Shown here piece by piece: positions 77-61,925 of a stretch of 64,000 nucleotides of DNA (position 1 is its first letter; the number at the start of each line of letters is the position of its first letter). The stretch is from NCBI GenBank assembly GCA_025363455.1, contig JANYDW010000050.1, forward strand, positions 2,839 to 66,838, read 5' to 3'. A program made the position numbers and the translations under genes. Origin of the DNA: Oleiharenicola sp. GTDB taxonomy: Bacteria; Verrucomicrobiota; Verrucomicrobiia; Opitutales; Opitutaceae. Under the pieces are notes generated by a model. That model was not told where the DNA came from, did no database searches, and saw nothing but the letters and a program-made list of their open reading frames with translations.

Positions 77-4207
<4,131 letters not shown>

Positions 4208-5733: not shown

Positions 5734-7929
5734 ATGTCCGTCGCGTCTCCCATCAATATTACTGTCGTCACCGACAAGGCCAAGATCTCAGCCGTCAACT
5801 CGAAGGACCGTCCCTTCCCGCTGGAATGGACGCGTAACATCGGCATCGCCGCGCACATCGATGCCGGCAAGACGACCACGACCGAGCGCATTCTTTTCTA
5901 CTCCGGCGCCGTCCACAAGATGGGCGAGGTCCACGAGGGCACCACGGTGACCGACTGGATGGAGCAGGAGCGCGAGCGCGGCATCACCATCACCGCCGCC
6001 GCCATTTCCTGCGCCTGGAACGCCTCTTGGGGTCCATGGAAGGGGATCAAGCAGCGCATTAACATTATCGACACCCCCGGACACGTGGATTTCACGGCCG
6101 AGGTGGAGCGCTCGCTCCGCGTGCTCGACGGCGCGGTCGCCGTGTTTGACGCCGTCGCCGGCGTGCAGCCCCAGTCCGAGACCGTCTGGCGCCAGGCCAA
6201 CAAATATCGTGTGCCGCGCATCGCTTTCATCAACAAGATGGACCGGGTCGGCGCGAACTTCTTCCGCTGCATCGACGACATCCGCAATAAGCTCAAGGCG
6301 AACGCCCACGCCCTCTACCTGCCGATCGGCGCCGAGGAGAATTTCACCGGCCTCATCGATCTCGTGCAGAACGTCGCCTATTCCTTCGAGGACAACCCGG
6401 CTGATCCGCTCGGCATGAAACCGGTTACGATGGAGGTCCCTGAGACCATGAAGGCGCAGACCAAAGAGTATCGCGACAAGCTCATCGAGGCGGTGTCCGA
6501 TTTCGACGATGTCATCGCCGAGAAGTATCTGAACGGCCAGGAAATCAGCGTCGAAGAGCTGATGCTCGGCGTTCGCAAGGCCACCATTTCCCTGCAGTTC
6601 ACTGGGGTGTTCCCCGGCTCCGCCTTCAAGAAGAAAGGCGTGCAGCGTTTGCTCGATTGCGTGGTCAACTACCTCCCGAGCCCGATCGACGTCCCGCCCA
6701 TGCAGGGCCAGGACAGCGACGGCAAGCCGGTCGAGGCGGTCGTCAGCGACAAGGCCAAGCTCGCCGGTCTGGCGTTCAAGCTCTGGAACGATCCCTTCGT
6801 GGGTCGTCTCGTGTTTTTCCGCGTCTACACCGGCCAGCTGCCGCGCGGCATGTCTCTCTACAATCCCCGCACCCGCCGCACCGAGCGCGTCTCCCGCCTC
6901 GTCCTCATGCGCGCCATCGAGCGCGAGGAAATCGAGGTCGCCTACTCGGGTGACATCTGCGCCGTCGTCGGCGTCAAGGACGTCATCACCGGCGACACCC
7001 TGTGCGACGAGGATTTCGACATCCGCCTCGAGCCGCCGTCCTTCCCGGAGCCCGTCATCTCGATGTCCATCGAGCCGAACTCCAAGGCCGATCAGGAAAA
7101 GCTCGGCGTCGCGCTCCAGCGCCTCGTCGCCGAGGACCCGACCCTGCGCGTCAAGACCGACCAGGACACCGGCCAGACCATCCTCGCCGGCATGGGCGAA
7201 CTGCATCTTGAAATCATCATCGACCGCATGAAGCGCGAGTTCAAGGTCGAGGCCACTTCCGGCAAGCCCCAGATCGCCTATCGTGAGACGATTCAGAAGG
7301 CCGCGGAAGGCGAGGGTAAGTTCATCCGTCAATCCGGCGGCAAGGGCCAGTACGGCCATGTCGTCATCAAGATGGAGCCGAACGAAAAGGGGAAGGGCGT
7401 CGAGGTCATCAACGAGACCGTCGGCGGTTCCATCCCGAAGGAATTCATCAAGCCGTCGACCGATGGCATCCTTGAGGGCGCCAACAACGGCGTCATCGCG
7501 GGCTTCCCGGTCGTGGACGTCATCGTGCGCATCGTGGACGGTTCGTTCCACGAGGTGGACTCGTCCGAAATGGCGTTCAAGATGGCCGGCATCTTCGCGT
7601 TCAAGGACGCGATGAAGCAGGCCGGTCCGATCCTGCTCGAGCCCATCATGGGCGTCGAGGTCACCACCCCGGAAGAGTACCAGGGCGACCTCATGGGCGA
7701 CATCAATCGCCGTCGCGGCCAGATCCAGGGCATGGATAACAAGACGGGCGCGTGCATCATCACCGCGCACGTCCCGCTCGAACTGCTTTTCGGATACGTC
7801 ACCGACATCCGTTCCCTCTCGAAAGGCCGCGCCAGCGCGTCCGTCACCCCCTCGCACTTCGCCCAGGTTCCGAATTCGCAGCTCGCGAAGATCGTCGAGA
7901 ACAACGCCAAGGGCCCGGCCCGCACTTAA
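5734..7929 (+). CDS. fusA: elongation factor G
   Basis: 731 aa with AHIDAGKTTTTE (G1) and DTPGHVDF (G3), full EF-G colinearity; about 20-aa N-terminal extension relative to E. coli. Confidence 0.97.
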   Translation: MSVASPINITVVTDKAKISAVNSKDRPFPLEWTRNIGIAAHIDAGKTTTTERILFYSGAVHKMGEVHEGTTVTDWMEQERERGITITAAAISCAWNASWGPWKGIKQRINIIDTPGHVDFTAEVERSLRVLDGAVAVFDAVAGVQPQSETVWRQANKYRVPRIAFINKMDRVGANFFRCIDDIRNKLKANAHALYLPIGAEENFTGLIDLVQNVAYSFEDNPADPLGMKPVTMEVPETMKAQTKEYRDKLIEAVSDFDDVIAEKYLNGQEISVEELMLGVRKATISLQFTGVFPGSAFKKKGVQRLLDCVVNYLPSPIDVPPMQGQDSDGKPVEAVVSDKAKLAGLAFKLWNDPFVGRLVFFRVYTGQLPRGMSLYNPRTRRTERVSRLVLMRAIEREEIEVAYSGDICAVVGVKDVITGDTLCDEDFDIRLEPPSFPEPVISMSIEPNSKADQEKLGVALQRLVAEDPTLRVKTDQDTGQTILAGMGELHLEIIIDRMKREFKVEATSGKPQIAYRETIQKAAEGEGKFIRQSGGKGQYGHVVIKMEPNEKGKGVEVINETVGGSIPKEFIKPSTDGILEGANNGVIAGFPVVDVIVRIVDGSFHEVDSSEMAFKMAGIFAFKDAMKQAGPILLEPIMGVEVTTPEEYQGDLMGDINRRRGQIQGMDNKTGACIITAHVPLELLFGYVTDIRSLSKGRASASVTPSHFAQVPNSQLAKIVENNAKGPART

Positions 7930-7962
7930 CTCTCTCCCTCAACCCTCGTTCTTTATACCGCC

Positions 7963-8271
7963 ATGAAAGGCCAACGCATTCGCATCAAACTCCAGGGCTT
8001 TGACTATCGGGTCATCGACCAGTCCGCTCTGGAAATCGTGGAAACCGCCAAGCGCTCCGGCGCCCGTGTCTCGGGTCCCATCCCGCTGCCCACCCACATC
8101 GTGAAGCTTTCGGTCAACCGCTCCCCGCACGTCGACAAGAAGTCCATGGAGCAGTTCGAATCCCGCACCCACAAGCGCCTCATCGACATCCTCGAGCCCA
8201 CCGCCCAAACGGTCGACGAGCTGAAGAAACTCAATCTCCCGTCCGGCGTCGACATCACCATCAACGTCTAA
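7963..8271 (+). CDS. rpsJ: 30S ribosomal protein S10
   Basis: 102 aa, [17 protein letters not shown].., head of the S10 operon. Confidence 0.97.
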
Positions 8272-8372
8272 AATTTTTAACCACATACCAGCTTAGCAGA
8301 CGCCGCTCAACCCGGCCCTGACTAAAGTAGGTCTAAACAAACGGCGCTCACCCGCCACCTACCACTTAGCCC

Positions 8373-9014
8373 ATGATCGCTACCATATTAGGCAAAAAAA
8401 TCGGCATGACCCAGGTCTACGACGCACAAAACGTCCTGATCCCGGTCACCGTGGTGGAAGCCGGCCCGTGCCCGGTCGTCCAGGTAAAAACTGTCGAGTC
8501 CGACGGCTACAACGCCGTGCAACTCGGTTTCGGCGCCCAGAAGGCGAACAACGCCTCGAAGGCCGAGACCAACCACGCCAAAAAGGCCGGTCTCGCCACC
8601 ACGCCCCGCGTGCTGAACGAAGTCCGCCTCACCGAGGCCTACTCCGGCAAGGCCGGCGACGTGATCACCGTCGCGGCATTCGCCGAGGGCCAGATCATCG
8701 ACGTGCTCGGTGTTTCCAAGGGCAAGGGCTTCCAGGGCGTCGTGAAGCGCTTCAAGGTCGGCGGTGGTCCCGCCGCTCACGGCTCGATGTTCCATCGCCG
8801 CATCGGTTCCGTCGGCATGCGCCAGACCCCCGGCCGCGTGTGGAAGAACCAGCGCATGCCCGGTCACATGGGCAGCGAGATGCGCACCGTGCAAAACCTG
8901 CGCGTGATTAAGATCATCGCCGAGAAAAACCTTATCCTCGTTAAGGGCGCCATACCCGGCGCCAACGGCGATGACGTCATCATCCGTTCCGGCAAGAAAG
9001 CCAAGAAAGCCTAA
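8373..9014 (+). CDS. rplC: 50S ribosomal protein L3
   Basis: 213 aa, GKGFQGVVKR motif, synteny. Confidence 0.96.
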   Translation: MIATILGKKIGMTQVYDAQNVLIPVTVVEAGPCPVVQVKTVESDGYNAVQLGFGAQKANNASKAETNHAKKAGLATTPRVLNEVRLTEAYSGKAGDVITVAAFAEGQIIDVLGVSKGKGFQGVVKRFKVGGGPAAHGSMFHRRIGSVGMRQTPGRVWKNQRMPGHMGSEMRTVQNLRVIKIIAEKNLILVKGAIPGANGDDVIIRSGKKAKKA

Positions 9015-9033
9015 CCCCGGAGACTGACCAAAC

Positions 9034-9669
9034 ATGAAACTCACCGTTTTCACATCCGACGCCTCGAAGAGCTCTGAGAAAGAGTTCAAGCTCCCGACCT
9101 TCGAGGGCGACCGCGGCCTCCAGGCCGTCAAGGAAGTTGTCGTCGCCCACCGCGCCAACGCCCGCCAGGGCACGCGCTCGACCAAGACCCGCGGTGAAGT
9201 CCGCGGCGGCGGCAAGAAGCCCTGGGCCCAGAAGGGCACCGGCCGCGCCCGCGCCGGCTCCAACCGCTCCCCTCTGTGGGTCGGCGGCGGCGTCGTCTTC
9301 GGCCCCAAGCCCCGCGACTTCTCCAAGAAGATCAACGGCAAGGTCAAGGCCCTCGCTTTTAACCGCGCCCTCTTCGACCGCGCCACCGCCGGTGACGTCA
9401 GTGTCATCGAGGCCTTCGCGCCCGACGCGACCAAGACCAAGGCCATGAACGCCGTCCTCGTCCGCATCGCTCCCAAGGGCAAGGTGCTGCTCGTCGACGC
9501 CCCCTTCACCGCCCAGGCCACCCGCGCCGCCCGCAATCTCGACCGCGTCACCCTGCAGGTGGCGTCCAAGCTCAACACCCTCGATCTCGTGCAATACACC
9601 AAGATCGTCGTGTCGAGCCTGGCCCTCGAGCAGATCATCGCCCGCACCAACGGAGGCCAGCAGTCATGA
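9034..9669 (+). CDS. rplD: 50S ribosomal protein L4
   Basis: 211 aa, KPWAQKGTGRARAGS motif, synteny. Confidence 0.96.
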   Translation: MKLTVFTSDASKSSEKEFKLPTFEGDRGLQAVKEVVVAHRANARQGTRSTKTRGEVRGGGKKPWAQKGTGRARAGSNRSPLWVGGGVVFGPKPRDFSKKINGKVKALAFNRALFDRATAGDVSVIEAFAPDATKTKAMNAVLVRIAPKGKVLLVDAPFTAQATRAARNLDRVTLQVASKLNTLDLVQYTKIVVSSLALEQIIARTNGGQQS

Positions 9670-9953
9670 TACAAGCCGACAAAATTCTCAAAACGATCCG
9701 CCTGACGGAGAAATCCAACAAGCTGTCGTCCAACTACGGTCAGTACACCTTCGAGGTGTACCCGGGCGCGACCAAGCACACCGTGCGCGCCGCCGTCGAG
9801 CAGACCTTCAAGGTCAGTGTCACGCGCGTGAACATCATGAACCGCAAGGGCAAGCCGAAGAAGTCCCGCCAGGGCCGCCCCATCACGATGTCCGACAGCA
9901 AGCGCGCCATCGTCACCCTCAAGCAGGGTGACAAGATCGAGCTCACCTCCTGA
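9666..9953 (+). CDS. rplW: 50S ribosomal protein L23
   Basis: 95 aa, 4-nt overlap with rplD, L23-like LTEKS.. N-terminus. Confidence 0.95.
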   Translation: MIQADKILKTIRLTEKSNKLSSNYGQYTFEVYPGATKHTVRAAVEQTFKVSVTRVNIMNRKGKPKKSRQGRPITMSDSKRAIVTLKQGDKIELTS

Positions 9954-9974
9954 GCGCACCGGAGATAACCCACC

Positions 9975-10841
9975 ATGGCCCTTAAATCCTTCCGTCCCCT
10001 CACCGCCTCACTCCGGTTCACCATCCTGAACCGCCCCGCCGGCGTGTCCAAGAAGCGCCCCGAGCGTTCGCTCGTCGAGTCGAAGAACAAGACCGGCGGC
10101 CGCAACACCTACGGCCGCATCACCTCCCGCCGTCGCGGCGGCGGGCACAAGAAGCTTTACCGCATCATCGACTTCAAGCGCAGCAAGCTCGATATGCCCG
10201 CCAAGGTGCAGTCGATCGAGTACGATCCCAACCGCAGCGCGCTTCTGGCGCTCCTCGCCTACGCCGACGGCACGAAGACCTACGTCCTCGCGCCCCAGGG
10301 CCTGCAGGCCGGTGATACGATCTACAACGCGATGAAGACCGACACGAACGACTACCGTCCGGGTAATTCCTTCCCGCTGGGCGTCATCCCGCCAGCCACC
10401 AAGATTCACGCCATCGAGATGCTCCCCGGCAAGGGTGCTCAGATCGCCCGTTCCGCCGGCACCTCGGCCGAGCTAGTGACCGTCGAGAACGGCTACGCGC
10501 AGATCCGCCTGGCTTCGGGCGAGACCCGCCTGGTCAACGCCCAGTGCCGCGCCACCATCGGCGAGGTTTCCAATCCCGACCACAACAAGCGCTCGCTCGG
10601 CAAGGCCGGCCGCAACCGCTGGCTCGGCAAGCGCCCCCGCGTCCGCGGCGTCGCCATGAACCCGGTCGACCACCCCAACGGTGGCGGTCAGGGCAAGTCC
10701 AAGGGCGGCGGTGGTCGCCAGCACCTCGTTTCGCCCTGGGGCCAGCTCGCCAAGGGCTTCCCGACGCGCAAACGCACCAAGCTCTCCAGCTCCTTCATCC
10801 TCGTTCGCGCCAACGGCCGTCCGCCGCGCGGCAAGAAGTAA
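9975..10841 (+). CDS. rplB: 50S ribosomal protein L2
   Basis: 288 aa, RGVAMNPVDHPNGGGQGKS motif. Confidence 0.97.
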   Translation: MALKSFRPLTASLRFTILNRPAGVSKKRPERSLVESKNKTGGRNTYGRITSRRRGGGHKKLYRIIDFKRSKLDMPAKVQSIEYDPNRSALLALLAYADGTKTYVLAPQGLQAGDTIYNAMKTDTNDYRPGNSFPLGVIPPATKIHAIEMLPGKGAQIARSAGTSAELVTVENGYAQIRLASGETRLVNAQCRATIGEVSNPDHNKRSLGKAGRNRWLGKRPRVRGVAMNPVDHPNGGGQGKSKGGGGRQHLVSPWGQLAKGFPTRKRTKLSSSFILVRANGRPPRGKK

Positions 10842-10859
10842 TCCCAACGCACCCGCACT

Positions 10860-11138
10860 ATGGCACGTTCCATCAAGAAAGGCTTTTTTGTCGACTACCA
10901 CCTCCTGGAAAAGATCCAGAAGGCGGCCAAGGCCGGTGGCGCCCGCAAGCCCATCCAGACCTGGTCCCGTCGCTCGACCATCACGCCCGAATTCGTCGGC
11001 CACACCATCAGCGTCCACAACGGCAAGACGCACATCGCCGTCTACATCACGGAGAACATGGTCGGCCACAAGCTCGGCGAGTTCGCCCCGACCCGCATCT
11101 TCAAGGCGCACGGTGGCATGACCCGCAAGGAAATCTAA
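10860..11138 (+). CDS. rpsS: 30S ribosomal protein S19
   Basis: 92 aa, [12 protein letters not shown].., VHNGK motif. Confidence 0.97.
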
Positions 11139-11164
11139 GGCCACGGCCCAACCGGAATACTACC

Positions 11165-11506
11165 ATGGAAATCCAAGCTCTCACCCGCAACGCGCGCATG
11201 TCGCCCCGCAAGGTCCGCGAAATCGCGAACCAGATTCAGGGTCGCCCCGTGCCCGAGGCCATCGACTTTCTCACGCTCATCCCGCGCAAGTCGGCCCGTC
11301 TCCTCGCCAAGACGCTCAAGAGCGCTGTGGCCAACGCCGAGAACAACAACAGCCTCTCGGCCAGCTCCCTCACCGTGTTCCGCGCCCTCGTGGAGCCCGG
11401 CCCGGTGCTGAAGCGCTTCAAGGCCGGCGCCCGCGGCTCGGCCAAGCCCCGCGTCAAGCGTATGTCGCACCTGCGCATCATCCTCTCCGACGGCAAATCC
11501 AACTAA
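11165..11506 (+). CDS. rplV: 50S ribosomal protein L22
   Basis: [21 protein letters not shown].. begins at the ATG at 11165, inside the longer track ORF 10544-11506 whose upstream part is out-of-frame overlap with rplB/rpsS. Confidence 0.93.
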
Positions 11507-11514
11507 CACTTACC

Positions 11515-22960: not shown

Positions 22961-23049
22961 AGTAGCGAGTAGCCAGTAGCGGGTAGCGAGCATCACGGCT
23001 CCGCCTGCTTTCTCTTCTACTCGCTCCTCACTACCCGCTACTCACTACT
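22961..23049. repeat. inverted repeat built from tandem GTAG-containing heptamers
   Basis: Left arm is AGTAGCG AGTAGCC AGTAGCG GGTAGCG AG. The right arm, reverse-complemented, reads GTAGTGA GTAGCGG GTAGTGA GGAGCGA GTAG. 26-nt spacer; lies in the unusually long rpoA-rplQ gap. Confidence 0.85.
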
Positions 23050-34119: not shown

Positions 34120-35769
34120 ATGATATCAATTTCCTCGTATCCCATCCTGACGTGCGCAGAGGCGAAAGCCTGGGAGGCACGCTTGGTGCAAGACGAGGCG
34201 GCCGAGTGGACAGCCATGCAGCTGGCCGGGCAGGCAGTGGCGCAGGCCATCCTGGAGGATTTCAAGGAAGTGGGCGGGCTGCCAGTGAAGGCCCGGGTGC
34301 TCGTTCTCGCCGGGAAGGGTCACAATGGCGGCGATGCGTTGCTGGCAGCGAAAACCATCATGGAAAAATTCCCGCAAGCCAGGGCCGATGTAGTACTCTG
34401 CTTCGGTGACGCCACGCTGCGACCACTGGCCCGTCGAGCGCTCAATGAACTGAGGCATATCGTCGGCCAGCGGATTAACGTCGCTGAAACACACCCCGGC
34501 GCTTCGCGCCACCCCTCTCTAGAGGGGATTTTCGACAGACCATCTGCCAGGTCCCCTCTGGAGAGGGGTGCCCGACAGGGCGGGGTGTGTTGGGATCTTT
34601 GTCTGGACGGAATCTTCGGTTTCCAATTTCGGGCGCCGATGGACGCGGACATCGCTGCCTTGATCGACACAGTCAATGCCCATGCCGGCATCAAGTTTCG
34701 CGCCGCAATCGATCTGCCCAGTGGGCTGGGGGAAACGAACGCGTCGACGATCTTCCGGGCGGATTTCACCTATGCGACGGGCATCGTTAAAAAGCCGGTG
34801 CTGTCTCACGGGGCGGCGAACTCGGTCGGTCGCCTGCGCTACCTGGATCTTGGATTTTTCGGGTCTGCTTGTAGGAGCCTGCTTGCAGGCGATGCCACGG
34901 GAGAATCGCCTGCAAGCAGGCTCCTACAACTTCAGAACGACAGTGCGGAGATGATTCTGCTCCCGTCACTCCTGGCTCCGCTGGCTGAGCTGCGCGCCTC
35001 ACAGACGGACAAGCGTACCTTCGGTCATCTATTCGTCGTCGGAGGTTCCCGCAGTTATCCGGGTGCGGTGGTACTGGCGGTGCGCGCGGCGCTCCGCAGT
35101 GGAGCGGGCTTGGTTACGGCCTTCGTGCCGGAGCGGCTGGCTCCGGAGTACGCCGCGCGCCACCCCGAGGGCATGTGGGTGGGTTGCCCGGAATCGGCCG
35201 GTGGCGGACTGAGCTCCGGGACCGTGGATTTGGTTCGGGAGCGAGTGAGCCGGGCCACCGCCATGTTGATCGGGCCGGGAATGGGGGCGGAAAACGAGAC
35301 CCTCGCAATGATGCAAGGGATTGTTCGTGAGACGAACATTCCGCTTGTGCTGGATGCCGATGCCTTGCGGCCGGAATTAATGGCGCGAGTCAAAGGCAGG
35401 CCCTTCATCGGCACGCCGCACGCTGGCGAATTGCAGCGCATCGCCCCGGAGCTTTATACCGCCGATCAGTTCACCGCTCAGCTGGGTGTACTGGTGCTGA
35501 AGGGGCCCATGACGCGGGTAACAGATGGGAAAACAACTTATTACAGCCCGTTTGGCGGGCCCGTGTTGGCGCGAGGCGGGAGCGGCGATATCCTGGCGGG
35601 GTTGATCGGTGGCCTGCTGGCGCAGAAGCCGGACGACTTGGTGCTGGCCGCGTGCCGGGGCGTGGTGTGGCATGGGCGAGCGGCTGATTTACTGGCTCGC
35701 GCTCGAGGTCAGGTTGCCATAGAGATTTCTGAAATCCTCGAGCAGCTTGGGCCGGCGCTCACTCCCTGA
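34120..35769 (+). CDS. nnr: bifunctional NAD(P)H-hydrate epimerase / ADP-dependent dehydratase
   Basis: YjeF_N (AGKGHNGGDAL, DGIFGFQFRAP) and carbohydrate-kinase-like C-domain (VVGGSRSYPGA, GSGDILAGLIGG). 549 aa, including two palindrome-derived in-frame inserts. Confidence 0.9.
   Translation: MISISSYPILTCAEAKAWEARLVQDEAAEWTAMQLAGQAVAQAILEDFKEVGGLPVKARVLVLAGKGHNGGDALLAAKTIMEKFPQARADVVLCFGDATLRPLARRALNELRHIVGQRINVAETHPGASRHPSLEGIFDRPSARSPLERGARQGGVCWDLCLDGIFGFQFRAPMDADIAALIDTVNAHAGIKFRAAIDLPSGLGETNASTIFRADFTYATGIVKKPVLSHGAANSVGRLRYLDLGFFGSACRSLLAGDATGESPASRLLQLQNDSAEMILLPSLLAPLAELRASQTDKRTFGHLFVVGGSRSYPGAVVLAVRAALRSGAGLVTAFVPERLAPEYAARHPEGMWVGCPESAGGGLSSGTVDLVRERVSRATAMLIGPGMGAENETLAMMQGIVRETNIPLVLDADALRPELMARVKGRPFIGTPHAGELQRIAPELYTADQFTAQLGVLVLKGPMTRVTDGKTTYYSPFGGPVLARGGSGDILAGLIGGLLAQKPDDLVLAACRGVVWHGRAADLLARARGQVAIEISEILEQLGPALTP
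34512..34590. repeat. pair of CCCCTCT..AGAGGGG hairpins plus G-rich tail, embedded in nnr
   Basis: CCCCTCTCTAGAGGGG (34512-34527) and CCCCTCTGGAGAGGGG (34553-34568), then TGCCCGACAGGGCGGGGTGTGT. Translated in frame as HPSLEGIF..SPLERGARQGGVC. Confidence 0.8.
34871..34927. repeat. REP doublet (REPIN), family A, inside the nnr coding sequence
   Basis: Perfect 23-bp inverted repeat GTAGGAGCCTGCTTGCAGGCGAT / ATCGCCTGCAAGCAGGCTCCTAC with an 11-nt spacer; same family as the REPs flanking the RAYT. Confidence 0.92.
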
Positions 35770-42770: not shown

Positions 42771-42776
42771 GGTGGT

Positions 42777-42853
42777 GTAGGGCGGGATCGCTGATCCCGC
42801 CACGAGAATGAATGCACATTCGCAGCAAGGCGGGATCAGCGATCCCGCCCTAC
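42777..42853. repeat. GTAGGG-headed REP doublet, perfect 25-bp arms
   Basis: GTAGGGCGGGATCGCTGATCCCGCC ...27 nt... GGCGGGATCAGCGATCCCGCCCTAC. Each arm is itself a 9-bp-stem hairpin. Confidence 0.92.
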
Positions 42854-42893
42854 AGTTTCCACCCGCTGGCACATCGGCTGCTGACAGCTTGCC

Positions 42894-46420: not shown

Positions 46421-46508
46421 GGAGGGCTCAGCTCCCGCTGAGCCGTTTCGACAAGCTCGAGGCCCTTAGCCTGTCGAGGGCCGCGGCCCAGCGGGAGCTG
46501 GGCCCTCC
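46421..46508. repeat. composite palindromic element with FDKL-type core
   Basis: GGAGGGCTCAGC-TCCC-GCTGAGCC, then core TTTCGACAAGCTCGAGGCCCTTAGCCTGTCGAGGG, then GGCCCAGC-GGGA-GCTGGGCCCTCC. The outer hairpins differ by a compensated pair. Confidence 0.85.
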
Positions 46509-48517: not shown

Positions 48518-48659
48518 AAATTTACGATGGACGATTTACGATGTACGATTTCCAGGCACAGCCAGGCGGTGCATGCTCTGGTTGCGTGACCAGCAACAGG
48601 GTCGCCCGCTTTGGTTCCCGCGGTTCGGCAAATCGTAAATCGTGAATCATAAATCGTAC
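48518..48659. repeat. inverted repeat built from tandem ACGATTT-type heptamers
   Basis: Left arm TTTACGA TGGACGA TTTACGA TGTACGA TTT; right arm AAATCGT AAATCGT GAATCAT AAATCGT AC; 78-nt spacer. Fills the ATP-grasp / alpha-E intergenic gap. Confidence 0.85.
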
Positions 48660-53278: not shown

Positions 53279-53331
53279 GTAGGAGCTTGCTTGCAAGCGA
53301 TTGCCTTGGTCGCCTGTAAACAGGCTCCTAC
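53279..53331. repeat. REP doublet (REPIN), family A
   Basis: GTAGGAGCTTGCTTGCAAGCGAT-N8-TCGCCTGTAAACAGGCTCCTAC; nearly identical to 54647-54698. Confidence 0.92.
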
Positions 53332-54046: not shown

Positions 54047-54133
54047 GTAGGAGCCTGTTTACAGGCGATTTTTCGGCCTGCGACTACGATTGCGCCTTGG
54101 CAGTCTCCAGATCGCCTGCGAGCAGGCTCCTAC
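54047..54133. repeat. REP doublet, family A (wide spacer)
   Basis: GTAGGAGCCTGTTTACAGGCGAT ...41 nt... ATCGCCTGCGAGCAGGCTCCTAC; ends 1 nt before the RAYT ATG. Confidence 0.9.
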
Positions 54134-54134
54134 A

Positions 54135-54650
54135 ATGGCAATCAATCCAGCGAAGGGCCACGCAGCGTTGCGTCGTGGGTGTTTTTCCCAACCGTCGACG
54201 GAGTATTTCCTGACGATTTGTACCGAGGCCAAGCAGGCGGGCCTCACCACCAAGCACATCGCCGATGCGATATTAAATGAGATGAAAGCAATGTCAGGTG
54301 ACGGCACTTGGTCATTGCTCTGTGCGATAGTGATGCCGGACCACGTGCATTTTCTTGCGGTGCTTGGAGAGCGGCTATCGCTGGGCAAGACCGTGCAAAG
54401 ATTGAAAGCCAAAACCTCTGCGGTGCTTGGTGCGGGCGGCATCGCTTGGGAGAGAGGCTTCTTTGATCGGCAATTGCGACCCAAGGATGATCGGCTGGCC
54501 GTTTTTCAGTATATCTATCTGAATCCGTATCGAGCCGGGTTGGTGGAGGTATCGGATCTTTGGCCGCACTACTACTGTGAGACGGAAGAGTGGAAGTGGT
54601 TTGGCGAGTTGTTAGAGCTTGGTCGGCCGTCTCCGGAGTGGCTGTTGTAG
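54135..54650 (+). CDS. REP-associated tyrosine transposase (IS200/IS605 TnpA-like, Y1 HUH)
   Basis: 171 aa with HUH motif MPDHVHFL and catalytic-Tyr motif YIYLNPYRAGLV. Single-copy gene flanked by REPs rather than IS ends. Confidence 0.88.
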   Translation: MAINPAKGHAALRRGCFSQPSTEYFLTICTEAKQAGLTTKHIADAILNEMKAMSGDGTWSLLCAIVMPDHVHFLAVLGERLSLGKTVQRLKAKTSAVLGAGGIAWERGFFDRQLRPKDDRLAVFQYIYLNPYRAGLVEVSDLWPHYYCETEEWKWFGELLELGRPSPEWLL

Positions 54651-54698
54651 GAGCTTGCTTGCAAGCGATTGTCTGGTCGCCTGTAAACAGGCTCCTAC
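54647..54698. repeat. REP doublet (REPIN), family A
   Basis: GTAGGAGCTTGCTTGCAAGCGAT-N7-TCGCCTGTAAACAGGCTCCTAC. The left GTAG supplies the RAYT stop codon; ends 4 nt before the lnt ATG. Confidence 0.92.
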
Positions 54699-54702
54699 AT
54701 CA

Positions 54703-56364
54703 ATGCTCACACCTCCGACCGACATCCCCGATCCCTACGCGCCGGTGCCGACGCTCTGGCAGCGGCATCCGTCGCTGGGGTGGATGCTGGCGGTCTTCGC
54801 CCTCACCGTGGGGTTGACCGTCATGTCGTTTCCGCCGATCAACAAGGGCGAAGCCGCCTATGTGCTGGCGCTGCCGGCGATTCTCTGGATTTATCGCCGG
54901 CCAGCTTTTCGGATTTTTGCCTGGACGGTGCTCGGCGCCCAAGCGGTCGTGTGGACGGCCCTGCTGTGGTGGCTGCACTACGTCACTTGGGCCGGGCTGT
55001 TTCTCCTGGGGCTGTTCCTCGGCCTGCTGACCGGTCTGTGGTTCCTGGCGGCCTGGTGGGTCATTCCCCGGCTGAAGGGGCACCACGCGATCATCCGCAT
55101 CACGGGAATGTTTGGGCTCGCCGGCCTGTGGGTGGTGCTGGAGTGGGTGCGCAGCGTGGTGTTTGGCGGTATCCCCTGGCTGCCGCTGGCCGCCAGTCAG
55201 TGGCAGCGGCCGTTCATCTTGCAGGTGGCCGCCTATGGCGGGGCGTGGGTGACCACGTTCATCCTTGTCGTCTTCAACCTGGGGGCCGCGGCCTACGTGC
55301 ACCGGGCCTTTTTCGAAGGCGTGACCGGCTTCAAGAAACGCACGCCGGAATTTTCTATCGCCTTGTTGGTGCTCATGGCGGGTTCGTTTCCGTTCCTGGG
55401 CGACACCTTCAACCAACGGCGCCAGCAACTGGTCCGTGCGGCGCTAGTCCAGCCCTACATCCCGCAGGATCAGAAATGGGACGCCGCCTTTGCCAAGAAG
55501 GTGCTTGAGACCCTCGAGCAGGTGACGCTGGCGGCCAACAAACGGGGCACACCCGACCTGATTATCTGGCCCGAGGCGGTGACGCCGTGGCCGCTCTACC
55601 GGGATGCGAACGTCCAGGCTTGGCTCGAATACATCGCCAAGAAGACCGGTAAGCCATTATTGCTGGGCTCGGTGGCGACGGAAATGCCCGGTCAGGATCC
55701 GTCGCTCTGGCGCAACGGCGCCTTCGTGGTTGATCCCGTGACTGGATTGGCCGCGGAAAACTACGCCAAGCGCAAGCTCGTGCCCTTCGGCGAATACATA
55801 CCGTTGCGCCCGGTGCTGGGCTGGCTGGAGAAAGTGACGCCGATCGGCGGCGACTTTACCCCGGGCGCCTCTGCCGAGCCCCTGCTCGTGCCGGTGGGCC
55901 GGAATCGCGTGCCGATCGGCGTGTTGATCTGCTACGAGGATATTTTTCCAGCTCTCGCCCGGGACAGCGTGCAGTCCGGCGCCGAGGTGCTGGCGGTGCT
56001 GACGAACAATGGCTGGTTCGGCGAGGGTGGGGCGGCCTACCAGCACGCGACGCATTCAGTATTGCGGGCCATCGAGAACCGCCGGCCGGTCATCCGCTGT
56101 GGCAACGGTGGCTGGAGTGGCTGGATCGATGAATACGGCAACATCCGCGCGACGGTGCTCAATGACGCGGACAGCGTGTATTTTCGCGGGGCGCAGACGG
56201 TGACCATCACCCGCGATGCCCGTTGGTCGCAACGCCTGAGTTTCTACACGGAGCACGGCGACTGGTTTGTGGCCGTCTGTGTCGTCTTGAGCCTGGTCAC
56301 CTACTATCTCGCGTTGACGCTGCGTCCGCCGGTGACGAAGCCGGACGGCGGGACGACGTTCTAG
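54703..56364 (+). CDS. lnt: apolipoprotein N-acyltransferase
   Basis: N-terminal polytopic domain + CN-hydrolase domain (IWPE, ICYEDIFP). Start taken at MLTPPTD, just after the REP. Confidence 0.92.
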   Translation: MLTPPTDIPDPYAPVPTLWQRHPSLGWMLAVFALTVGLTVMSFPPINKGEAAYVLALPAILWIYRRPAFRIFAWTVLGAQAVVWTALLWWLHYVTWAGLFLLGLFLGLLTGLWFLAAWWVIPRLKGHHAIIRITGMFGLAGLWVVLEWVRSVVFGGIPWLPLAASQWQRPFILQVAAYGGAWVTTFILVVFNLGAAAYVHRAFFEGVTGFKKRTPEFSIALLVLMAGSFPFLGDTFNQRRQQLVRAALVQPYIPQDQKWDAAFAKKVLETLEQVTLAANKRGTPDLIIWPEAVTPWPLYRDANVQAWLEYIAKKTGKPLLLGSVATEMPGQDPSLWRNGAFVVDPVTGLAAENYAKRKLVPFGEYIPLRPVLGWLEKVTPIGGDFTPGASAEPLLVPVGRNRVPIGVLICYEDIFPALARDSVQSGAEVLAVLTNNGWFGEGGAAYQHATHSVLRAIENRRPVIRCGNGGWSGWIDEYGNIRATVLNDADSVYFRGAQTVTITRDARWSQRLSFYTEHGDWFVAVCVVLSLVTYYLALTLRPPVTKPDGGTTF

Positions 56365-56376
56365 ATCGGCATTCTT

Positions 56377-56453
56377 GTAGGAGCCTGTTTACAGGCGATT
56401 CTGGATTCTCGCTGACGGACCGGAGCCAGCCTCGTTTGTAAACAAGCTCCTCC
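56377..56453. repeat. REP doublet, family A, one arm degenerate
   Basis: GTAGGAGCCTGTTTACAGGCGAT plus a decayed inverted partner TCGTTTGTAAACAAGCTCCTCC (head GTAG changed to GGAG). Confidence 0.8.
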
Positions 56454-61902: not shown

Positions 61903-61925
61903 ATCGCCTGCAAGCAGGCTCCTAC
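61903..61925 (-). repeat. single REP, family A, in the 5' leader of the giant gene
   Basis: ATCGCCTGCAAGCAGGCTCCTAC on the + strand, which is GTAGGAGCCTGCTTGCAGGCGAT on the coding strand; 15-37 nt upstream of the ATG at 61888. Confidence 0.9.

Follow-up and report, generated by a model that had tools for sequence, protein, structure and literature searches.

In Pseudomonas, E. coli, and Neisseria, REPIN-RAYT systems pair two REPs in inverted orientation around a spacer that is less well conserved (Nunvar et al., 2010; Bertels and Rainey, 2011; PMC3116915). Such systems further have a single RAYT (REP-associated tyrosine transposase) with REPs on either side; their master sequence is conserved, changes in the inner stem compensate one another, and REPINs are reported to lie almost only outside genes (PMC3116915). 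Within the Opitutaceae, on the other hand, approximately 70 in-frame GTAG REPs have been catalogued in Opitutus terrae, and neutrality through placement in flexible linkers or loops has been proposed for these intragenic copies (Di Nocera, De Gregorio and Rocco, 2013, BMC Genomics 14:522; PMC3733652). In Rickettsia, the mobile palindromes called RPE likewise sit in frame within housekeeping genes that are unrelated to one another, where they are translated and compatible with the protein fold; RPE-1 is about 100–150 bp long and has no known cognate transposase (Ogata et al., 2000; PMC10969869). According to the account of Delihas (2007; PMC2759123), as relayed in PMC10969869, ERIC and other enterobacterial MITEs are also small mobile palindromes that occasionally lie in ORFs and add peptides; they belong to other element families and hosts, and many of those cases fall at the ends of ORFs and may reflect misannotation.

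Here we describe a REP doublet inside nnr of an uncultured Opitutaceae bacterium, found in a 64-kb stretch of its genome that was analysed as a whole and is referred to below as the window. It resembles the intragenic REPs of O. terrae in being GTAG-headed, in its host family, and in adding a dimer of about 20 residues in frame to a conserved housekeeping protein; it differs in belonging to another REP family, GTAGGAGCCTGCTTGCAGGCGAT, and nnr/YjeF is not in the published O. terrae list of intragenic REPs (PMC3733652). It shares with the REPIN-RAYT systems the paired inverted REPs, the single REP-flanked RAYT, the master sequence, and the compensatory stem changes. In contrast to them, the doublet is short, its spacer varies widely in length and sequence within the family, and this copy is, as its reading frame indicates, intragenic and in frame. 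Compared with RPE-1 it is a smaller element, a doublet of 57–61 nt, and has a RAYT in the same window. An earlier note on this DNA regarded an intact doublet within a gene as unusual on the ground that REPs are extragenic, which is overstated given the O. terrae catalogue. The nnr REPIN is a further example of a phenomenon already described for Opitutaceae, and the current picture is unchanged because the phenomenon has been known since 2000 from Rickettsia and since 2013 from Opitutus. Its value lies in being a clean and well-anchored RAYT-associated doublet in an essential-type metabolite-repair enzyme, an example strengthened by the cognate RAYT in the same window and by the insert-free state in close relatives.

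The REPIN and the gene that carries it

The gene, its domains, and the two palindromic elements within it are positioned in the window as follows.

34120–35769, + strand: nnr, bifunctional NAD(P)H-hydrate epimerase/dehydratase, 549 aa
34216–34857, + strand: epimerase domain YjeF_N (Pfam, aa 33–225; TIGR00197 match to aa 246), with the site-A element within it
34488–34591, + strand: site-A palindromic element, about 104 nt long, a composite hairpin resembling a MITE and read in frame within YjeF_N
34869–34929, + strand: REPIN, a tail-to-tail REP doublet; arms 34869–34893 and 34905–34929, 100% complementary
35032–35736, + strand: dehydratase domain Carb_kinase (Pfam, aa 305–539)

The perfect 23-bp inverted repeat with an 11-nt centre reported by the earlier note is exactly where it was placed: the core occupies 34871–34893 on the + strand, its exact reverse complement 34905–34927, and the spacer between them (34894–34904) reads GCCACGGGAGA. 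Flanking TT/AA dinucleotides extend the perfect arms from 23 to 25 nt. Each REP unit has the layout GTAG-GA-GCCTGC-TT-GCAGGC-GAT, a GTAG head with an imperfect palindrome behind it; this head and stem may resemble Pseudomonas-type GTAG-1. Four of the six combinations of frame and orientation are open, and the nnr ORF crosses the element without a stop, reading ...GFFGSACRSLLAGDATGESPASRLLQLQNDSAEMIL..., so that CRSLLAGDATGESPASRLLQ forms aa 251–270 of the product and about 20 residues are added. Since aa 251–270 falls between the boundaries of YjeF_N and Carb_kinase (in NCBIfam, yjeF_nterm ends by aa 246 and yjeF_cterm begins at aa 289), the REPIN lies in the interdomain linker, in agreement with the proposal of an in-frame, stop-free insertion between the two domains. 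The hairpin proposed for the middle of the mRNA is also predicted by RNA folding, with −59.3 kcal/mol and a z of −8.4 for 34850–34950 and a 25-bp stem at the domain boundary.

Both domains are found in one polypeptide (PF03853, 2.1e-23; PF01256, 5.6e-38), whose length of 549 aa compares with a modal 505 aa among relatives. TIGR00196 scores 156 bits, above its cutoff of 130, whereas TIGR00197 (63 bits, cutoff 88.6) and the full-length equivalog PRK10565 (140 bits, cutoff 703) stay below theirs, as expected because the orthologue is divergent and insert-bearing. All columns invariant across 30 relatives are retained in the alignment. Against the closest relative, three blocks of the nnr domains gave dN/dS of 0.14, 0.09, and 0.10 with dS of 0.6–0.9, and both domains are therefore under strong purifying selection (dN/dS ~0.1). 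A pseudogene, or a division of nnr into two separately translated genes, is ruled out by the continuous ORF together with this selection on either side of the insert. An internal start at the ATG at 34948 is not credible, as GGAG directly precedes the ATG without spacing. Judging from the conserved coding sequence, the insert-bearing Nnr most likely remains a functional enzyme. In an AlphaFold2 model made from a 30-sequence alignment (mean pLDDT 68.9), the N-terminal domain was modelled poorly, and aa 199–275, which include part of that domain, have pLDDT below 50, around 30; this is compatible with a disordered insert and is no proof of it.

A REP family with a RAYT in the window

The 23-mer has ten matches with at most three mismatches in the 64-kb window, against an expectation of 0.00 from 100 shuffles. 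Eight other units of the family are all intergenic, as are all palindromic repeats of the window outside nnr.

53279–53331, no strand: intergenic REP doublet of the nnr REPIN family, with secA on one side and a HAD-type ORF on the other
54047–54133, no strand: REP doublet of the family, directly 5' of the RAYT, spacer 41 nt
54135–54650, + strand: RAYT, 171 aa (NF047646 REP_Tyr_transpos, 86.1 bits, cutoff 80)
54647–54698, no strand: REP doublet of the family, directly 3' of the RAYT, spacer 6 nt
56377–56399, + strand: intergenic REP singlet of the family
61903–61925, − strand: intergenic REP singlet, identical to the master sequence

The shared 23-mer and the RAYT score bear out the view that the nnr REPIN and the REPs flanking the RAYT at 54 kb are one family. 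The inner stem stays paired in family variants (GCTTGC/GCAAGC, GCCTGT/ACAGGC, GCGTGC/GCACGC). Rfam families had no match anywhere in the window.

A scan of metagenomes for REP doublets yielded at least 120, and among the 120 listed the nnr 23-mer is the commonest, or "master", sequence, accounting for 169 of 240 arms (~70%). Both arms are identical to it in 67 of these 120, and a perfect doublet is thus typical of the family rather than unusual, as had been suggested. Spacers in the listed doublets vary from 7 to more than 31 nt, and just five of the 120 have the 11-nt spacer that gives the 57-nt form; yet all four credible in-frame copies have it, namely nnr here, nnr of the genome L025, a UvrA-like gene (L099), and SCO1/SenC (L199). 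In a mod-3 test on the arm-plus-spacer length of ORF-spanning doublets, most of the long ORFs were without coding signal or Pfam support; of the doublets in the scan, L099 and L199 alone could be accepted as intragenic, and L118 and L105 stayed ambiguous. T is enriched next to the doublets at −1 (75%) and −2 (43%), probably as part of the element, and no target-site consensus was found at the doublets beyond these two positions.

The interdomain linker and a second palindrome across relatives

Of 112 scorable homologues, 85 have an Nnr linker of 27–30 aa; the linker here is 48 aa long. Aligned with TM0922 (PDB 2AX3), aa 280–540 of Nnr correspond to residues 223–493, and 35 residues in Nnr stand opposite 14 in the solved protein. 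When close relatives were compared for the empty site that the earlier note had called for, the closest one (L201/P0002, 82% nucleotide identity) was found to lack this REPIN and to carry, within a few nucleotides of its position, a different GTAG dimer. The peptide type in the nnr linker of the closest relatives is that of the O. terrae GTAG-17 dimer, VAGVADPGPGSASPA (PMC3733652).

New here is that about one quarter (~24%) of the Opitutaceae Nnr orthologues carry REP-type inserts in this linker, of at least five kinds, which differ between lineages in sequence, position, and length (+9 to +22 aa); PMC3733652 does not report that several REP families have repeatedly occupied a single orthologous linker in this way. 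Most orthologues, the nearest clades included, have an empty linker. Also new is the same master REPIN in a distant lineage, L025 (61% amino acid identity), with identical 25-nt arms, the same codon offset and frame, and an unrelated spacer. The presence of the insert in a distant lineage and its absence from the closest relative are indirect evidence for its putative mobilisation by the RAYT. The shared codon offset and the five or more insert types are, separately, hints of targeting or selection over chance and tolerance.

The second, independent palindromic insertion claimed for this gene is confirmed by repeats, fold, and homologues, and spans 34488–34591. This site-A element encodes ...ETHPGASRHPSLEGIFDRPSARSPLERGARQGGVCW and has a predicted RNA fold of −79.3 kcal/mol (z −7.8); its words reach about 60 times genome depth. 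L201, L001, and several proteins have it at the identical site. Its arms are near-invariant in three genomes, while the middle of the element and the coding sequence around it have diverged; dS is 0.09 in the element against 0.6–0.9 across the rest of nnr.

Origin and retention of the insert

We consider it likely, at a probability of roughly 0.7, that the nnr REPIN is a young, RAYT-mobilised, near-neutral copy kept in a tolerant linker, and that Nnr is read through and functional. The GTAG-headed doublet would most likely have been mobilised in trans by the single RAYT of the genome, 19 kb downstream, and would have landed in the variable part, about nine residues long, of the epimerase-dehydratase linker. 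It may have been retained because its 57-nt form amounts to whole codons (about 20) with no stop in the reading frame concerned, and because the segment tolerates length. The ribosome would then translate straight through the element and the enzyme would stay functional, with the insert probably a near-neutral passenger rather than a new functional module. The nnr locus was found in no RNA run.

The identical arms, offset, and frame of the L025 copy, combined with unrelated spacers, could alternatively reflect an ancient REP occupancy of the linker that predates the split of the Opitutaceae, with gene conversion or replacement by RAYTs keeping the arms at the current master sequence, and with the element swapped for other REP families or precisely excised elsewhere. 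Such a history would also suit the sister lineages of both carriers, which hold a different REP dimer at nearly the same place, and it has a parallel in the near-invariant arms and low dS of site A. It is nevertheless unlikely: in an NJ tree the two carriers fall in distant clades with dozens of empty-linker lineages between them, and identical arms are expected anyway when the master sequence makes up 70% of the listed arms. With about 18 admissible positions in a nine-codon linker, the chance of a shared offset is near 5%, and the offset is therefore no compelling sign of common origin. A single ancient origin of the two REPINs is accordingly the less likely account. A related proposal, to which we assign a similarly low probability, treats the linker as a landing pad at which RAYTs repeatedly insert REP dimers of several families, exchange them, and perhaps remove them by precise excision, with arms kept at the master sequence while the gene diverges. 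It sees in-gene REPINs as active, reversible linker variation or as a selected mRNA hairpin at a domain boundary, and not as rare accidents that are tolerated. Exaptation, in which a hairpin of about −59 kcal/mol acts through ribosome slowing or as an RNase III site to adjust expression or co-translational folding, or in which a longer linker is itself beneficial, would fit the location of a very stable stem precisely at the domain boundary and the frequency and variety of REP-type linker inserts. We find it quite improbable, as those inserts vary by lineage in sequence, length, and position, most orthologues do without one, and the same REP families occur in many unrelated proteins of O. terrae (PMC3733652).

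That the structure is instead a repeat mis-assembly in a metagenome-assembled genome, or a broken gene in the form of a pseudogene or two cistrons, is extremely unlikely. Its metagenomic source and the depth of REP words, about 50 times that of the genome, would speak for mis-assembly. However, in each of four metagenome runs a single 2420-nt Logan contig covers 34564–35900 through both junctions with no differences and no gaps, although the four runs are of one study and two look identical. Because the REPIN-nnr junctions are reproduced in these per-run assemblies, they did not arise as an artefact in the deposited assembly, and because the 11-nt spacer and the flanks are unique, the assembly path is unambiguous; the independent genome L025 has a matching architecture, and the gene is intact by the reading frame and selection described above. 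An assembly artefact, which the earlier note had named as a ground for rejecting the insertion, is thus ruled out. The empty-site allele of nnr was not seen in the population, as judged from contigs, which drop rare variants.

With its recurrent linker inserts, a master REPIN found in parallel, and arms conserved beyond synonymous divergence, the nnr gene of Opitutaceae could be a useful natural system for studying possible targeting of REP insertion, the precision of RAYT-type excision, and the part that mobile palindromes play in linker evolution. The tryptic peptide SLLAGDATGESPASR would be diagnostic of read-through translation of the Nnr insert.

A perfect REPIN in the Nnr linker

The 23-bp inverted repeat with an 11-nt spacer, which the earlier note had reported within the open reading frame (ORF) at 34120-35769, was found there in open frame and is composed of the following elements:

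34871-34893, + strand: left core of the REPIN, 23-mer GTAGGAGCCTGCTTGCAGGCGAT (direct sequence match)
34905-34927: right core, exact reverse complement of GTAGGAGCCTGCTTGCAGGCGAT
Between the two 23-nt cores: spacer of 11 nt, GCCACGGGAGA

The perfect arms reach 25 nt once the flanking TT/AA is counted (34869-34929), and the RNA of 34850-34950 folds at -59.3 kcal/mol against a shuffle mean of -30.9 (z = -8.4). The 549-aa ORF contains the REPIN as ...GFFGSA-CRSLLAGDATGESPASRLLQ-LQNDSAEMIL..., and four of the six combinations of frame and orientation lack a stop. By its domain matches the ORF is a bifunctional Nnr: Pfam assigns aa 33-225 to YjeF_N and aa 305-539 to Carb_kinase, and NCBIfam ends yjeF_nterm at aa 246 and begins yjeF_cterm at aa 289. 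The REPIN encodes aa 251-270 and therefore lies within the interdomain linker, so that both sets of boundaries agree with its earlier placement between the epimerase and dehydratase domains. Modal Nnr length among the best 120 homologues is 505 aa, and the linker (GFF to (S/T)DKR) of the window Nnr measures 48 aa, against 27-30 aa in 85 of the 112 proteins that could be scored. Comparison with Thermotoga maritima Nnr (PDB 2AX3) gives, over the linker, 14 residues in the crystal protein and 35 in the query. The AlphaFold2 model is confident over the dehydratase domain, and its pLDDT of about 30 over aa 199-275 is compatible with a disordered insert, though no proof of one.

The window derives from a metagenome-assembled Opitutaceae genome (Verrucomicrobiota) with nearest named homologues in Lacunisphaera, Oleiharenicola, and Opitutus. 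The nnr locus is present in four sediment or rock metagenome runs of one study, two of which look identical. In each run one 2420-nt Logan contig spans 34564-35900 with no differences and no gaps, and thus crosses the REPIN and both junctions unbroken. An assembly artefact, which the earlier note had considered, is therefore countered by junctions reproduced in the contigs of four runs, all from one study; no empty-site joint was seen in these contigs, which lose rare variants. Nei-Gojobori comparison with the closest relative (P0002/L201; 82% nucleotide and 85% amino acid identity) yields dS of 0.6-0.9 and a low dN/dS in each of three blocks (aa 1-122, 0.14; aa 159-247, 0.09; aa 280-549, 0.10), and therefore both domains are under strong purifying selection. 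The window Nnr also keeps every column invariant in a 30-sequence alignment, and an artefact or a pseudogene is highly improbable.

The REP family and its transposase

The window contains ten matches to the 23-mer (up to three mismatches), where 0.00 would be expected. Those outside nnr include:

53279-53331: REP doublet, intergenic
54047-54133: REP doublet on one side of the RAYT, intergenic, ending 1 nt before the RAYT ATG
54647-54698: REP doublet 3' of the RAYT, intergenic, overlapping the RAYT stop codon
56377: REP singlet, intergenic
61903: REP singlet, intergenic

The ORF at 54135-54650 (171 aa) matches NCBIfam NF047646 (REP-associated tyrosine transposase, RAYT) at 86.1 bits against a cutoff of 80, and since 23-mer matches flank it, the nnr REPIN belongs, as proposed earlier, to the family around the 54-kb RAYT. 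The segment 54047-54698 is a complete "REPtron", a RAYT gene bracketed by REP doublets. Downstream of the RAYT (54619-54703), the longest ORF of an apolipoprotein N-acyltransferase-like gene begins at a TTG in the RAYT 3' end and translates the REP doublet as CRSLLASDCLVACKQAPT; translation more probably begins at the ATG that directly follows the doublet, and the case illustrates REPs mis-annotated as N-terminal coding sequence.

A doublet scan of JGI metagenome contigs returned at least 120 loci. Among the 120 doublets listed, the exact nnr 23-mer accounts for 169 of 240 arms and forms both arms in 67, so the nnr copy is "mutation class 0" of the family master sequence. Perfect doublets are thus the rule in this family. 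Minor arm variants retain inner-stem pairing (GCTTGC/GCAAGC, GCCTGT/ACAGGC, GCGTGC/GCACGC), and spacer length varies between 7 nt and 31 nt or more, with 11 nt in only 5 of the 120 listed. The exact 23-nt master REP was also observed in four other genomes (L025 3663-3723, L033 4771, L047 7385, L057 7014); their Nnr proteins are only 49-61% identical to that of the window, so that conservation of the master sequence extends over much of the Opitutaceae.

Four further inverted-repeat pairs of other families, all intergenic, lie at 42776-42854, 46421-46508, 22968-23049, and 48520-48654, one being a GTAG-type doublet with perfect 26-nt arms, TGTAGGGCGGGATCGCTGATCCCGCC. The genome therefore hosts multiple families of palindromic repeats, a situation also reported for O. 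terrae.

Recurrent insertion into the linker

The REPIN literature places these elements "almost exclusively in extragenic space", and the nnr copy had understandably been read as an exception. The exception is already documented for Opitutaceae by Di Nocera, De Gregorio & Rocco (2013; PMC3733652), who divided REPs into GTAG- and CGTC-tagged superfamilies, listed about 70 intragenic cases in O. terrae (Additional file 3; hosts include uvrA, DNA ligase, dihydropteroate synthase, 2-oxoglutarate dehydrogenase E2 subunit, and release factor 3), and proposed that insertions may be neutral given their location in flexible linkers or loops. nnr/YjeF is absent from that O. terrae list, and Rickettsia RPEs are an older precedent for in-frame palindromic inserts. 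The observation is confirmed and its earlier interpretation partly supported.

Linker inserts occur in 27 of 112 homologous proteins and in about 16 of 78 species-representative genomes; they are of at least five kinds, and most are GTAG dimers at the DNA level.

Kinds of insert in the Nnr linker
CRSLLAGD..SPASRLLQ: +20 aa
VAGLGEPGPGSATPA: +9 or +10 aa
VAGLGEPGPSFAKAxDGKPGSATPA: +19 aa
KTAHPEDSPYPVGRVVPDEP: +14 aa
GGALVAPRCAASA: +16 aa
GTAGGAAGC-type, a further doublet: in L035, L039, and L044

The VAGLGEPGPGSATPA inserts of this gene's relatives are of the same type as the GTAG-17 dimer peptide VAGVADPGPGSASPA of O. terrae (PMC3733652). This repeated colonisation of the Nnr linker goes beyond the published picture, and so do the shared REPIN of L025, the common form of the in-frame copies, and the behaviour of site A, all described below.

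We favor, at a probability of roughly 0.7, a recent RAYT-made insertion into a permissive linker. A RAYT acting in trans would recently have duplicated the master REPIN, the copy would have entered the linker, and it would have been kept because its 20 added codons are free of stops, with a near-neutral effect on the enzyme. IS200/IS605-type HUH transposases use a single-strand "peel and paste" mechanism, and this RAYT would work in the same way. An ancient occupancy of the linker, in which REP copies evolved in concert and one REP family was exchanged for another, is a distinctly weaker candidate. The closest relative is without the nnr REPIN and carries another GTAG dimer, GTAGCCGGGCTCGGTGAGCCCGG-T-CCGGGGTCAGCGACCCCGGCTAC, 4 nt upstream of the equivalent position, and carriers of linker inserts of the various kinds are dispersed among empty-linker clades on the neighbor-joining tree. 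The distant L025 (P0119; 61% amino acid identity), whose sister lineages have a GGALVAPRC dimer, holds in its nnr linker a REPIN with identical 25-nt arms at the same codon offset and frame, with an unrelated 11-nt spacer, GGTTTAAAGGA. The identical arms are no sign of common descent because both copies are the master sequence, and in a linker of 9 codons the two offsets would coincide by chance about once in 18. Less probable still is exaptation of the hairpin or of the linker length.

Only two of the 120 listed doublets are convincingly intragenic. The one in L099 (10732-10788, ORF 6024-11507) is a 57-nt master REPIN that keeps the frame of a UvrA-like protein longer than 1800 aa and is flanked on either side by ATPase and zinc-finger matches. 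That in L199 (1311-1367, ORF 721-1590, minus strand) is a 57-nt REPIN in frame in a copper chaperone, where it separates the N-terminal signal anchor (MKTKFTLALLVLIAVAS) from the SCO1/SenC domain. Both are in the CRSLLAGD/SPASRLL frame, and the uniform 57-nt form of in-frame copies is compatible with a filter that passes the shortest form able to keep the frame. In O. terrae uvrA (Oter_2709) a different REP dimer occupies aa 1601-1623, about as far into the protein, and the UvrA-like insertion point may be another recurrently hit site.

Other inserts within nnr

Beyond the single REPIN, the analysis points to the recurrent-linker pattern and to an unexplained DNA-level conservation of intragenic elements. 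The second palindrome insertion claimed for nnr (near 34512) was indeed found:

34488-34591: site A, in-frame palindrome of about 104 nt within YjeF_N, fold -79.3 kcal/mol

Site A occupies the same site in the window, L201, and L001, where its arms are almost invariant, in contrast to divergence in the central 18 nt or so and in the coding sequence on its flanks. For site A, dS is 0.09 and dN/dS 1.24, against 0.6-0.9 and about 0.1 elsewhere in nnr, so that it is the DNA or RNA, rather than the peptide, that is constrained or homogenised; in this respect site A resembles DNA with a constraint of its own. Its word depth is about 60 times genome depth in the metagenome runs, and Logan contigs break there. 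In the Nnr tree the site-A carriers do not form one clade; they comprise P0001-6, P0010, P0013, and P0017, together with P0100, whose copy is partial. A third, lineage-specific class of inserts lies within Carb_kinase (alignment A1, columns 467-534; e.g., GGRAGLRP..., CGKAGLRPADAGQSKTGP) in P0004, P0024, P0071, P0085, P0010, P0061, P0100, and P0013, and the 37-aa insert of P0013 resembles a site-A-type element in another frame or orientation.
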